A stretch of 64,000 bases of DNA. Source: Dictyostelium discoideum. Its lineage: Eukaryota. Below are positions 4,918 through 18,914 of the stretch, piece by piece; position 1 is the first letter of the stretch, and every line of letters begins with the position of its first letter. Location of the stretch: positions 2,592,001 through 2,656,000 of the forward strand of contig CM000153.2 in NCBI GenBank assembly GCA_000004695.1. Reading direction: 5' to 3'. Below the pieces are notes generated by a model. The model saw only the letters and a list, made by a program, of their open reading frames with translations. It ran no database searches and had not been told where the DNA came from. Both the position numbers and the translations under genes were made by a program.

Positions 4918-5591
4918 ATTCAGCTTTATATAAATAAAAAAACCAATTTTAACGGATTCCTTAAAAAGGTTTTTTTTTTTTTTTTTTTTTTTTTCATCAC
5001 CAATTTTGGAAAAAAATAAATAAAAAAAAGCAATCGATATTTACCCTGGTTGAGGGTTTTATTTGTTTTTTTTTTTAAGCTTAAAAATGTCATCCAAATT
5101 TAAAAAATTAAAAAAAAAAAATAAAAATAAAAAAAAAAATAAAAAAAAAATTAAAAATAAAATAAAAAAAAAAAAATAAAAAAAAAAAAAAAAAAAAAAT
5201 TTTCCTTTGTGAGAGATCCTTTTAATTTATTTTTATTTATTTATTTATACTACCTATTTTTCTTTTTTATTTTTTTTTTTTTATTGTTTTTTTTTTTTTG
5301 TTTTTTTATATTTTTTATAAAATTTTTTTTTTTGTCACATATCACAACTAATAACAATTTTCCCTCCACTTTTTTTTTTTTTTTTTTTACACACTTATAT
5401 ATATATATATACACAAAATAAATGATAAATATGACAGAGACAAAACAATTAAAATTAATTTTAATAGGAGATGTGAAGTAATTATTTAGAATATTTAACA
5501 AACAACAACAAAAATTTATAAAAACACACAAAAAAAAAAAAACTTAACCAAACCACACACCACAAACCAAAAAATAAAAAAACATCAAAAA

Positions 5592-6751
5592 ATGGTTACT
5601 AATATATTAAAAAAACCATAGCGTTGGAAAGACGTCTATTCTTCATAGGCTTATTTTTTCCAAATTTACAGAAGAATATAAAAGTACTATAGGTGCAGAT
5701 TTTTTATCAAAAACATTTTATCAAAATGATATTATTACACATATTCAACTTGTAAGTTTCACTTGACAAATAACAGAAACAATGACAATAACAATAGCAA
5801 CATCAATAATAAAAACAGTATACATTTTGTGCTACAGATTATAATGATTATATATAGAAAGCAACTTCCACCACATCCACCACATCTTCATATTCAATCT
5901 CATTACCACCCACCCACCCTCCTTCCTCCCTTCCCCTTACTTACTATGTATTATTGTACAATAATAATTAATAAAAAACAGAGTGTATACTAATTTTGCA
6001 ATGTTTTATTTATTTATTATTTATTATTTAATATTTTAGTGGGATACAGCAGGACAAGAGAAATATTGGTGTTTAACATCAGCATTTTGGAGAACATCAG
6101 ATGCAGTTATATTAGTATTTGATATTTCAAATGAATCATCTTTTAGAAATTTAAATTTTTGGTATAAACAATTCAAATCAAAGAGTATAAACCCTGATGG
6201 GACAGAAAAACAATTACCTATATTATTATTAGCAAATAAATCAGATTCTTTGACAAGAGCTGTCGATCAATCTGAAATTAATCAATGGTGTACTGATCAT
6301 AAAGTTAATTTATATTATGAAGTATCTGCTAAATCTTCTATAAATATAAAAGAATCAATTCTAAAATTAGTTGAAGTTATAATTGAACAAGATAAAGATT
6401 CTGATAAGTAAGTTATTTAATAATAAATAATAAATAATAATAATAATAAATAAAACAAACCAATAAAATAAATAATATCTACATATATTATATCTATATA
6501 ATATCTCTATATCTCTATATCTATATTTATATAATATATGTTTATATATTATATGTATATATTTTCAAATAGCAATATTAATTAATTATGGTTATTCAAT
6601 TTATACTTACACTACCAGCGAACAATTTAATGATAGCCCTGACGAAGAAACATCATCAATTACTTTATTAGGTACTTCTAAAAAACATGATAATACCAAT
6701 CCAAATAAACCTTCAACTTCCTCACCTTCAAGTTGTTTCAATTGTAAATAA
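5592..6751 (+). CDS. Rab-like small GTPase with an atypical P-loop. Exons about 5611..5751, 6040..6407 and 6619..6751. N-terminal start unresolved.
   Basis: Reads ..KNHSVGKTSILHRLIFSKFTEEYKSTIGADF.. | WDTAGQE..LANKSD..EVSAK.. (G1, G3, G4, G5 motifs). Donors are GTAAGT at 5752 and 6408; acceptors at 6039 and 6618. C-terminus ..SSCFNCK. The ATG at 5592 lies in a different frame from the GKT segment across an A7 homopolymer, and TAA at 5608-5610 closes the GKT frame upstream. Confidence 0.6.
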
Positions 6752-7093
6752 TGATTTAAAAAAAAAAAAAAAAAGAAAAAAAAAAAAAAAACAATAATTA
6801 AAAGAATAAGAAAATAAATAAAAAAGCAAAAGAAAAAGAAGAAAAGAAAAAAAAAAAAAAAAAAAAAGAAGACTACAAAAATGAATCAAACAAAAGTTAA
6901 CTTATTTTATTATTTAAAAAAAAAAAAAATTAAAAAAAAAAACCAGTTTAAACAAATAAAAAGTAAAATAGAAATATTAACTATGTAAAGCCAAATCAAA
7001 TAGAAAGTTTAAACTTTATTAAATTATTTTTTTTTTTTTTTTTAGTTTATATTTTATTTTTAAAATTTGTATTTTATTTAATTATTTTTTTTT

Positions 7094-8545
7094 TTAAATA
7101 CTTTTTTCAATTTTAATAGTTTCTTCATTATAAATAACATTATTAAAAGTATCTTTTTGTTTATCAAAACAATTATTTGGACAAGTGTAAATGAAAGCAT
7201 TACTAAATTCTAATTGATTCTTTTTTGGATCTAAAGGATCTCTTAATTTAATTTGAGCTATTAAAGTTGACAAAATTTGAAATTCAAATACTTTAACAGA
7301 ATTACAAATTGAGCAATGTGGTGGTAAATTATTAATTTGGTTGAATGTTAATAATTTTACACCCTCTGCAGTCATTGGTAATGGTTTACCACCATATGAA
7401 TAACGTAAACATTGGTCAGGTGCAAATGAGATCTTTTTAATGAATTTACTAAAAACACGATCTTTTACATATTCATAGGTTTCATCTGACCATTCTGCAC
7501 TTTCATCACCAAATGTATTCTCTATACCTTGATATTTCTTTAAAATACTTTGATTTAAATCTGATTCTTCATTATTATTATTGTTTTTATTTGATGATTT
7601 TTTATCTTTTTTTGTATAAATTGATTCTTCATCAATGAATAAAGTACATGATTGAAATTTATTACTTTTATCATCTGGAATAATTACACCTGATATTATT
7701 TCTTCCTCATTAATACAATCATCTTCTATATTTATTTTATTATTATTTTTTTTTTGTTGTTCTTCTTCTTTAATTCTTTTCTTTTCTTCTTTAATTGCAT
7801 CATCACGAATTTTTAATAATTGATCAATTGAATTTGTAACTGATGCTGTAGTAGTAGTAGTAGTTGTTGTTGTTGATGAAATTCCCCAATCATCAGAATC
7901 TTCAACACCCCAATCATCAAGTGGTTTTTCAATTACATTTTGTTGATGTAACTCTTGTACTTTATCCTCAATTTGTTCATTTTGTAAATCTTCTTCCTCT
8001 TCTTTTAATGGATCTAAACATTTAATTACTCTCCAACTAAATTAACAAAATAATTATGTTAGTTTTTAAAATTTATATAATTGATAATTTCCAAAAAAAA
8101 AAAAAATAATAATAATAATTTGAAAAATTCTTTACCCAGAAGATAATGGATTGCATTCATTACTTGGACAAACAAAAACGTAGAAATTTCTTTCATAATC
8201 TGGAAGTGAATTTAATGGACAATATGCTTGTAATAAAAATGATAAATTTGAACTACACATATTACATTTTAAATCTTTTAAATGATTTGGTGGTTGAGCA
8301 CACCATATCTATTGTTTTTAAAATAAGAAAATAAATAAAATAAAAATAAAAAAATGAAAATAAAAAAGTTAGTATTAATTATTTTAATTTTTTAAAAAAA
8401 AATATTTAAAACTCACAGGTGATCCACCAATTTTTGTTGAATAAGGGTAATCATCCTCTTCTTCCTCTTCTTTATTTATTTTTAAACTATCAATTGGTTC
8501 ATCAATAAATCCTAAGAATGTTTTTGTATCATTTTTAATTGACAT
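7094..8545 (-). CDS. PDCD2-like protein (PDCD2_C domain, no MYND finger). Three exons: complement(join(7094..8036,8136..8308,8417..8545)).
   Basis: Exon 1 MSIKNDTKTFLGFIDEP..STKIGGSP with GTGAGT donor. Exon 2 IWCAQPP..CNMCSS..YCP..CPSNECN with GTAAAG donor. Exon 3 carries the PDCD2_C signature FAPDQCLRYSYGGKPLPMTAEG..LPPHCSICNSVKVFEFQILSTLI. Phases 0/2 are consistent. Confidence 0.75.
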
Positions 8546-16631: not shown

Positions 16632-18914
16632 ATGAAAATAAGTTTTAAAAATTTAATTTTTATTTCATTTTTAATAATAAAAGTTTCATCATATGGTGAA
16701 CCAAATTTAAGAGGTAATCCAAATTGGTTTGAAAGAAGTAATCATGTATTAGTTAATTCAGTTAGAATTGCACCAAAGGAATACCAAAATAGATATACAC
16801 AATTTGGAAATCAAGATGTATTATCTCCATCAATTTATCCATCAGTGCCACCATTATTCTTTGAATTTTCATTAGGAGCATCAGCATTGGCTCATGCAAG
16901 AGATATGTCAATAAACAATTGTTTTTCACATGAATCATGTGATGGAACAGATTCCGATACCAGAATCAATGAATACTATCATTGTGATGAAATCCATGGT
17001 GAAAACATTGCAGCAGGTTATGATTCACCATTGATCACCAATAATCAATGGGTTTGTGATGATGGCACCAATGACCCATACTCAAATCCAACATGTGCTC
17101 AAGATGCTTCAGGTTCCGATGGTCATAGAGCAAATATTATGAATCCAAATTTCAAGGCAATAGGTGTTGGTTTCTCTTTTACCTCTGATAGCACCTACCA
17201 TTCCTACTGGACTCAAGATTTTGGCGCTCAACCATGTTTTAACATTACCAATCAACCAATTCATTCGGGTTCTCATTTATTCTTAAATCAAAACAAATTA
17301 ACTTTTATGGTCGATTGGTATGATCAAGTTGAACCAACCGTTGCTTACGTTGTAATTAGTGGTAAACCTAATAAATTGAATTTAGAAATGGGTTCAAAAT
17401 CAAAAGGTATTTATAGTTTATCAGTCCCAATCGAGAATCAAAAATCAAATGATGATGATAATAAAAAATCAAAAACTCAACAGGCTTCTGATTTTGCAAA
17501 GAAATTATTACATTTAGATTCCTGTAGAGATTATTATTTCTATTTTGAAAAATCAATCATTACAAATACAACAAATTCAACAGTTCAAGTAACTGATAAA
17601 GGTAATGTCACACTCACTTCCTATTCATTTTCAAAATCAACTGAAATCTTTAGATATCCACATTTTGGTTATTTAACTACTTTTGGTGAAGGTAATTGTA
17701 AAAGATCTTATTCAATCAATGGTACTGAATATAATCCTTATAATAATTTTAATTCTACAACTGGAATGCATTCTTCAACTTCATCTTGGTCATCAACTTC
17801 TTCAACTTCTTCGTGGTCTTCAACTTCTTCAACTTCATCATGGTCTTCAACTTCTTCAACCTCTTCATCTCCTTCTACTGTTCCACCAACAAATAATAAT
17901 GGTGGAAATAGTAATAATTCTGAACAACCATCTTCAACAACAACAACTACTACTACATCTTCTACAATAGGTACAACAATGGAACCAACAACTTCAACAA
18001 CAACATCAACAACAACTTCTACAACTATTGAACCAACTACATCATCAACAACAACATCAACAACAACTTCTACAACTGGATCATCATCATCATCATTATC
18101 ATCATCATCATCAGATAAATTTGATTCATTTGAATCATCAATTGAAATATTTAATAGTAACCATAAATTTATTGGATGCTTCAATGATGATATTTCTCAT
18201 GATTTACCATTTAATGAAATTTTTTCAATAAATATGACAAATGATAAATGTGAATCTTATTGTACAAAGAATGGATATAAATATGCTGGAACAGAGTTAG
18301 GAACACAATGCTATTGTGGTAATTCATATGGTCACTATGGTAAAGCTAATAAAGAATCTGATTGTAATTTTAAATGTGGTGGTGATAAATCTAAAATCTG
18401 TGGTGGTAATGATAAAATCTCTGTTTATAAAACAAGTTATAATGGTTGTTTCTCATATGAACCATTGATTGGTCATTTCTCAATCTCTGCAAGTAGTCCA
18501 AATATGACAGTTGAGGGATGTAGAGCTCATTGTTTTAAAAATCATTATTTAATTGCTGGTTTATCACGTGGTAATCTTTGTTTCTGTGGAAATGATACAA
18601 TTTTTGAGCAACAACCACAAACCGAAAATCCCTCAAGACCAAAATCAATTCCAACTTGTAATTCCAAATGTACAGGTTCAAATAAAGAAAATTGTGGTGG
18701 TGTAAATGAAATTTCAATCTATTCAACTGAAAATATTTCAAATCTTTTGGTACCTGATAATTTAAAGGATACATCTTCTTTATTAAATCAAAATCAACAA
18801 CAACAACAACAAGAACAAGAACAAGAACAAAATAATTCACAACCATTATTATTAATATCATTAAAATCATATATATTAATAATAATAATAACAATATTTG
18901 TATCATTAATTTAG
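16632..18914 (+). CDS. Secreted, probably GPI-anchored protein: N-terminal CAP/SCP (bacterial YkwD-like) domain, Ser/Thr-rich mucin linker, two WSC carbohydrate-binding domains, hydrophobic C-terminus. Single exon.
   Basis: Signal peptide MKISFKNLIFISFLIIKVSS. CAP motifs ALAHARDMS..CFSH..GENIAAGY..GHRANIMNPNFKAIGVGF..YWTQDFG. SSTSSWSSTSS and TTSTTTSTTT repeats. Two WSC-type Cys patterns (GCFND..MT..C..YC..GY.YAG.E.G..CYCG..C..KCGG....CGG..VY; CFSY..MT..C..HC....AG...G..CFCG..C..KC.G....CGG). C-terminal LLLISLKSYILIIIITIFVSLI. Confidence 0.75.
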   Translation: MKISFKNLIFISFLIIKVSSYGEPNLRGNPNWFERSNHVLVNSVRIAPKEYQNRYTQFGNQDVLSPSIYPSVPPLFFEFSLGASALAHARDMSINNCFSHESCDGTDSDTRINEYYHCDEIHGENIAAGYDSPLITNNQWVCDDGTNDPYSNPTCAQDASGSDGHRANIMNPNFKAIGVGFSFTSDSTYHSYWTQDFGAQPCFNITNQPIHSGSHLFLNQNKLTFMVDWYDQVEPTVAYVVISGKPNKLNLEMGSKSKGIYSLSVPIENQKSNDDDNKKSKTQQASDFAKKLLHLDSCRDYYFYFEKSIITNTTNSTVQVTDKGNVTLTSYSFSKSTEIFRYPHFGYLTTFGEGNCKRSYSINGTEYNPYNNFNSTTGMHSSTSSWSSTSSTSSWSSTSSTSSWSSTSSTSSSPSTVPPTNNNGGNSNNSEQPSSTTTTTTTSSTIGTTMEPTTSTTTSTTTSTTIEPTTSSTTTSTTTSTTGSSSSSLSSSSSDKFDSFESSIEIFNSNHKFIGCFNDDISHDLPFNEIFSINMTNDKCESYCTKNGYKYAGTELGTQCYCGNSYGHYGKANKESDCNFKCGGDKSKICGGNDKISVYKTSYNGCFSYEPLIGHFSISASSPNMTVEGCRAHCFKNHYLIAGLSRGNLCFCGNDTIFEQQPQTENPSRPKSIPTCNSKCTGSNKENCGGVNEISIYSTENISNLLVPDNLKDTSSLLNQNQQQQQQEQEQEQNNSQPLLLISLKSYILIIIITIFVSLI

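Follow-up and report, generated by a model that had tools for sequence, protein, structure and literature searches.

The rab32D locus of Dictyostelium discoideum: an intact four-exon Rab gene whose first intron splits the P-loop codons

The rab32D locus

The window considered here is the whole 64,000-nucleotide stretch of DNA that was analysed. The region under study within it is, with near certainty, the known, annotated and intact protein-coding gene rab32D of Dictyostelium discoideum, whose four exons encode a Rab GTPase of 228 aa that belongs to the Rab7/Rab32 supergroup. The gene model lies on the forward strand and comprises a CDS of 687 nt distributed over exons 5422-5477, 5622-5751, 6040-6407 and 6619-6751. 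In an exact-sequence look-up, its spliced 228-aa translation was identical over all residues to Rab-32D of D. discoideum AX4 (UniProt Q54P07, RB32D_DICDI, XP_639910.1, EAL64989.1), and the Rab-like GTPase gene called in the first-pass annotation of this region is thereby borne out. Newer strain annotations of Rab32D begin at Met4 and give 225 aa, whereas Q54P07 begins at Met1. A literature search on Q54P07 and RB32D returned nothing other than a published Rab screen (PMC8980073). The features of the gene are the following.

5422-5477, forward strand: exon 1, 56 nt (MINMTETKQLKLILIGDVN), encoding MINMTETKQLKLILIGDV and contributing bases 1 and 2 of the Asn19 codon; the spliced translation agrees exactly with Q54P07
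5478-5621, forward strand: intron 1, 144 nt, GTAATT...CCATAG, which holds ATG 5592, TAA 5608-5610, the A7 tract 5609-5615 and the 'KNHS' read-through
5467-5634, forward strand: P-loop (G1) codons Gly16 to Thr23, GDVNVGKT, with codon 19 split by intron 1 (AA before it, C after it)
5622-5751, forward strand: exon 2, 130 nt, which completes the P-loop and continues through helix 1 and switch I (YKSTIGADF)
5752-6039, forward strand: intron 2, 288 nt, GTAAGT...TTTTAG, with a C-rich block inside
6040-6407, forward strand: exon 3, 368 nt, with G3 WDTAGQE at 6040-6060 (Gln68 at 6055-6057), switch II, G4 NKSD at 6235-6246 and G5 SAK at 6325-6333
6408-6618, forward strand: intron 3, 211 nt, GTAAGT...ACCAG
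6619-6751, forward strand: exon 4, 133 nt including the TAA stop (6749-6751), with the hypervariable tail and the C-terminal CFNCK (6734-6748)

Exon 1 opens with in-frame ATGs at 5422 and 5431. From 5422 onward the sequence reads ATGATAAATATGACAGAGACAAAACAATTAAAATTAATTTTAATAGGAGATGTGAA and then GTAATT, that is, a 56-nt open stretch running up to a standard splice donor at 5478. Joining 5477 to 5622 gives ...LILIGDV-N-VGKTSIL..., the letters at the junction being GGAGATGTGAA on the exon 1 side and CGTTGGAAAG on the exon 2 side. An exact search of metagenome contigs for this spliced junction, GGAGATGTGAACGTTGGAAAGAC, gave 0 matches.

Other splice choices were considered and rejected. On a reading of the sequence, a donor within exon 1 (after 5472) breaks the frame. 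Among the site pairs available for intron 3, only donor 6407 with acceptor 6618 yields the 228-aa product that matches Q54P07: donor 6411 or acceptor 6572 leads to frameshifts and stops, and acceptor 6636 leaves an open 222-aa product, but one that matches neither the reference protein nor the model from D. firmibasis. A 136-aa Logan fragment (P0129) is unspliced genomic read-through, from intron 2 to a stop after exon 3, and is uninformative on splicing.

Intron 2 contains a C-rich block, ccaccacatccaccacatc...cacccacccaccctccttcctcccttcccc, at 5858-5950, an unusual feature in an AT-rich intron of Dictyostelium; at its place D. firmibasis has an (AAT)n run, and a 76-aa ORF that spans the block (5763-5993) is spurious. 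The gene is flanked by A-rich homopolymer-like tracts of 98 nt on the 5' side (5102-5199) and 110 nt on the 3' side (6758-6867), typical of Dictyostelium intergenic DNA. Beyond the latter, 7094-7375 on the reverse strand is an exon with a PDCD2_C domain (E 8e-16), part of a neighbour gene on the opposite strand whose 3' end faces that of rab32D. Further along, a 760-aa ORF at 16632-18914 on the forward strand carries two WSC domains and a CAP domain (cysteine-rich secretory protein). No tRNA gene turned up when the window was scanned for them.

Intron 1 and the apparent frame discontinuity

The first-pass annotation had described a Gly-less P-loop, KNHSVGKT, together with a frame discontinuity at an A7 tract near the start of the gene. 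The bases that it cited are all present: ATG at 5592-5594, TAA at 5608-5610, A7 at 5609-5615 and CATAG at 5617-5621, and the frame through GKT reads ...Y-stop-KNHSVGKTSILHRL... (Y-stop-KNHSVGKT). The two anomalies are nevertheless artefacts, which arose when the 56-base exon 1 was overlooked and intron 1 was translated as protein. ATG 5592 was taken to be the only upstream ATG, wrongly, given the two that start the 56-nt exon. The KNHS segment is intron 1 read through, and the spliced P-loop is GDVNVGKT, a conventional GxxxxGKT. The frame discontinuity is not real, because ATG 5592 and the A7 tract are both intronic. Three explanations had been listed, a cryptic upstream exon joined at the 'catag' acceptor, a homopolymer length error and a pseudogene, and the first is the true one, with the splice running from 5477 to 5622. 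A conventional GxxxxGKS/T-encoding exon spliced in, which had been named beforehand as the finding that would speak against a Gly-less P-loop, is what the gene model and the orthologue transcripts contain.

Comparison with the genomic orthologue of D. firmibasis follows the exon boundaries of the model. Exons 1 to 4 are 94.6, 90.8, 94.0 and 80.5% identical with zero gap columns, and introns 1 to 3 reach 60, 42 and 74.5% identity, their alignments containing 12, 57 and 11 gap columns. The GT donor of exon 1 is conserved, and the split codon 19, AA/C in D. discoideum and AA/T in D. firmibasis, differs synonymously, both forms encoding Asn. The N-terminus MTETKQLKLIL[IV]GDVNVGKT is found in the gene models of seven other Dictyostelium assemblies (D. 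discoideum, D. cf. discoideum, D. citrinum, D. dimigraforme), and the D. firmibasis gene model has the full MINMTETK... form.

The constructs used in the published screen start at the same place. The Rab32D forward primer, ATGATAAATATGACAGAGACAAAAC, maps to 5422-5446 of the window, the reverse primers map to 6710-6733 and 6725-6748, and the mutagenic primer for Q68L, which changes CAA to CTA, maps to 6043-6069 (PMC8980073). Gln68 carries the number 68 only if exon 1 is included.

These data bear directly on the proposal of a homopolymer error, in which the tract is truly A6, ATG 5592 is in frame and the product begins MVTNILKNHSVGKT... with a Gly-less P-loop. Deleting one A does bring ATG 5592 into frame with GKT when the sequence is read that way. 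However, the resulting product would be without beta-strand 1 and the first P-loop glycine (Gly16). In D. firmibasis, TTG stands in place of ATG 5592, and where the A7 tract would be there is other sequence with a 4-nt indel; neither is conserved, and there is no coding conservation across this segment, whereas exon 1 is 95% conserved together with its donor. The exon-1 form is the one found in the orthologue mRNA contigs and in eight further gene models of Dictyostelium, from D. firmibasis, D. discoideum and relatives, and the published constructs begin at 5422. The comparative data and the constructs thus contradict a length error, which is effectively refuted and to which practically no weight can be given.

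An intron within the P-loop codons is also present in Polysphondylium violaceum, whose genomic orthologue (L006) reads ...GTGGGAGACACAAG before the intron, then GTACTATT...AACAG, and TGTCGGGAAAACA after it. This intron follows CDS base 56, in the same codon and phase as in rab32D, and introns 2 and 3 also lie at the same CDS positions. Four contigs of 1.0-1.2 kb from a close relative (L001-L004) are collinear with the P. violaceum locus and are devoid of all three introns, and they are accordingly best described as mRNA-like. They read GGTGACACAAGTGTAGGGAAAACT, which encodes GDTSVGKT, and the junction between GGTGACACAAG and TGTAGGGAAAACT is thus seen spliced. In Tieghemostelium lacteum, intron 1 is absent and the genome encodes the whole P-loop contiguously (FKFVLCGDCAVGKS), while an intron is found at the position of rab32D intron 2.

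The P. violaceum-type orthologue (L001-L004; L006:2320-2440; P0002, P0130, P0131, P0132) comes in three protein forms that are alike except at the intron-3 junction (EN-SHYD, EKYSHYD and EKSSHYD), which suggests alternative donor or acceptor use. A different irregularity is seen in four Rab homologues predicted by gene calling on metagenome and Logan data (P0022, P0046, P0076, P0084), which have an unrelated start followed by '...SVGKTS' with no GD before it. To judge from these predicted proteins, this looks like a gene caller reading through an intron within the P-loop codons.

An expressed or decaying pseudogene could be invoked solely on the apparent stop and frame break of the unspliced reading. 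Against it, the spliced ORF is intact, and dN/dS between D. discoideum and D. firmibasis is 0.10 overall, 0.04 in the G domain and 0.29 in the tail. Orthologues are retained across four dictyostelid genera, and Rab32D shows a specific interaction in yeast two-hybrid. A pseudogene is therefore contradicted, by dN/dS in particular, and is exceedingly improbable; rab32D is a gene under purifying selection. The orthologues in question, with 45-93% identity, come from Dictyostelium, Polysphondylium and Tieghemostelium, plus a Heterostelium sequence that is probably mis-modelled, and the next matches are Rab7-like at about 40%. The Heterostelium album model (P0005) is without the FWYKQFKSKS...LPIL segment and has no C-terminal cysteine; it was probably mis-predicted, with one exon skipped and the 3' end misplaced.

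Protein family and predicted function

Rab32D scores 146 bits with the Pfam Ras family model (PF00071; cut-off 21.6), the match extending across residues 11-176 and model positions 1-160 of 162. Full-length agreement with this model and with PDB structures shows that the G domain is intact. The five G-box motifs are present: G1 GDVNVGKT (16-23), Thr41 of switch I, G3 WDTAGQE (63-69, with Gln68), G4 NKSD (128-131) and G5 SAK (158-160), the last three having been correctly recognized in the first pass. All of the top database and PDB matches are Rabs. In the PDB search, the highest score was that of Rab7a (128 bits, E 2.5e-36), followed by Rab3a (119), Rab32 (114), Rab9a (113), Ypt7 (112), Rab29 (110) and Rab38 (107).

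Rab7a (human/rat; PDB 1VG0, 3LAW, 1T91) is thus the best-scoring solved relative, aligned over residues 9-193, and has in common with Rab32D the layout of the G boxes, the switch I sequence TIGADFL and WDTAGQE. The two differ in the P-loop, GDSGVGKT in Rab7a and GDVNVGKT in Rab32D, and in switch II, ERFQSLGVAFYRGAD in Rab7a and EKYWCLTSAFWRTSD in Rab32D. They also differ at the C-terminus, which is a CXC in Rab7a and CFNCK in Rab32D.

Mammalian Rab32, Rab38 and Rab29 (PDB 5OED, 6HDU, 6HH2) belong to the same Rab7/Rab32 supergroup, which is Group III of PMC3425129, and on sequence grounds Rab32D is classed here as a dictyostelid-restricted member of it. These three proteins score below Rab7a, with 107-114 bits against 128. 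The 'Rab32' subfamily label is not supported by this ordering, which is a similarity ranking only, and '32D' is a matter of nomenclature, the name having been taken from the database. Rab32D specifically is not classified in PMC11513930 or PMC3425129.

The Rab-specific RabF motifs, reportedly IGVDF, KLQIW, RFRSIT, YYRGA and LVYDIT as set out by Pereira-Leal and Seabra in 2000, were compared with Rab32D by eye: IGADF, IQLW and LVFDIS fit, and KYWCLT and FWRTS diverge.

From what is known of the family, Rab32D would switch between GTP and GDP states on a membrane in the conventional way, with phosphate and Mg bound by Lys22 and Thr23. A GEF would activate the protein, and inactivation would proceed by hydrolysis using Gln68, helped by a TBC-type GAP. 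The membrane anchor would be provided by geranylgeranyl groups on the C-terminal cysteines. The protein probably acts in the endolysosomal or macropinosome pathway. In the one published study, Rab32D bound the macropinosome protein PripA in yeast two-hybrid, as did Rab7A, Rab7B and Rab32A, and imaged GFP-Rab32D showed limited co-localisation with PripA-deltaPH (PMC8980073). The Q68L form was employed there as a 'constitutively active' mutant, and the bait constructs, named Rab32D(deltaCFNCK), had CFNCK deleted for the two-hybrid assay, as was done with the C-terminal Cys motifs of other Rabs (PMC8980073). The PripA data point to an endolysosomal or macropinosomal role for Rab32D without establishing one.

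The biochemical cycle of Rab32D may nonetheless differ from that of a textbook Rab in rate or in partners, because of Val18/Asn19 in the P-loop, the divergent switch II (KYWCLTSAFWRTSD) and the non-canonical CFNCK.

Val18 and Asn19 of the P-loop

The first-pass annotation held that the residues equivalent to Ras G10, G12 and G13 are all replaced. This fails for G10, since the spliced P-loop is G16-D-V-N-V-G-K-T23 and its first Gly is present, and it stands for G12 and G13, whose equivalents Val18 and Asn19 are not Gly. Most Rabs have Ser-Gly at these two positions. The Ras-G12 equivalent in Rabs is normally Ser rather than Gly, with Ser in at least half of the members (PMC4531439), and over half of them have Gly at the Ras-G13 equivalent, which is not an invariant position (PMC2064568).

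The loss of GTPase activity that had been predicted from the P-loop carries rules from Ras over to a Rab. With the catalytic Gln68 intact and a G13 equivalent that varies among Rabs, no such loss is predicted. Assignment to a GTPase-deficient class of the Rnd/RabL-like kind likewise finds no footing in the predicted protein, in which Gln68, Gly16 and Gly21 are all present.

Natural precedents exist for both substitutions. Rab33B (PDB 1Z06, 2G77, 6SUR) has GDSNVGKT and shares with Rab32D an Asn at the Ras-G13 equivalent, although it belongs to another Rab subfamily and has Ser where Rab32D has Val at the preceding position. EhRabX3 has GDQNVGKT, and further precedents are GDVSVGKT (P0091), GDVFVGKT (P0111) and GTANVGKT (P0119). 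Among the 132 relatives fetched, a sizeable minority are non-Gly at the second position (S, A, N, T, C or F), and the exact form GDVNVGKT is confined to the group-4 Dictyostelium cluster. Rab32D orthologues themselves vary at the two positions, with VN, TS, CA and TG. The Val-Asn P-loop is thus uncommon but within known Rab variation, and as far as the sequences go it does not predict lost GTPase activity.

A milder alternative, compatible with the main reading and refining it, is that the gene is real but Val18/Asn19 confer atypical nucleotide handling, with slow GDP release, a poor GEF response or GAP resistance, giving a partly 'locked' Rab. When Val replaces Ser at the first site, Sec4p and Rab3a become less sensitive to GEFs and their intrinsic GDP release is 3-4 fold slower, the reverse of what Ras G12V does (PMC4531439). 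At the second site, Rab38 G19V is inactive, this being the Gly19 that is mutated in the chocolate mouse and that corresponds to residue 19 of Rab32D, and Rab5 A30V is more active (PMC2064568). The confinement of GDVNVGKT to a single cluster also speaks in favour. However, the variation among orthologues implies that no particular residue is required, other natural Rabs have Val first (P0091, P0111) or Asn second (Rab33B, EhRabX3), and Gln68 is intact. Rab33, moreover, is a TBC-GAP substrate in PDB entry 2G77, which counts against atypical handling. Sec4p S29V and Rab3a S31V have Val at the Ras-G12 equivalent, as Rab32D naturally does with Val18, but they are laboratory mutants of Ser-type Rabs, and their effects may not transfer to a protein that has evolved with Val. 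On balance, atypical handling appears rather unlikely.

Switch II and the C-terminal tail

Two stretches of Rab32D switch II, WCLT and FW.T, do not vary among the dictyostelid orthologues. This conserved divergence suggests lineage-specific partners.

The C-terminus is SSCFNCK, followed by the TAA stop, and, as had been noted, it is not a canonical CC/CXC motif. CFNCK has two Cys in its last five residues and matches none of CC, CXC, CCX, CCXX, CCXXX or CXXX. Orthologues end in CFICK, RCCK or NCFK, and D. discoideum Rab32B ends in CCK (PMC8980073). One D. cf. discoideum protein (P0124) ends in SSCFNFQLRLQK in place of SSCFNCK, with the last cysteine lost; this could stem from a genuine frameshift, from an error of assembly or from differing gene models.

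Implications

The gene rab32D has been annotated since the AX4 genome, and it was among the genes cloned for a published screen of Rabs, so the finding is of little biological import in itself. It does hold a lesson of method for AT-rich, intron-bearing genomes, in which a short exon 1 ending within the P-loop codons, combined with read-through of the following intron, yields a false 'degenerate P-loop'. Beyond this, it is conceivable, if doubtful, that the group-4 Dictyostelium Rab32D lineage, with its fixed Val-Asn, its rewired switch II (KYWCLT...FWRT) and its CxxCK tail, has unusual nucleotide kinetics, with slow exchange and altered GEF/GAP dependence, and perhaps non-standard prenylation. 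If this were true, Rab32D would parallel in nature the engineered mutants Sec4p S29V and Rab3a S31V.
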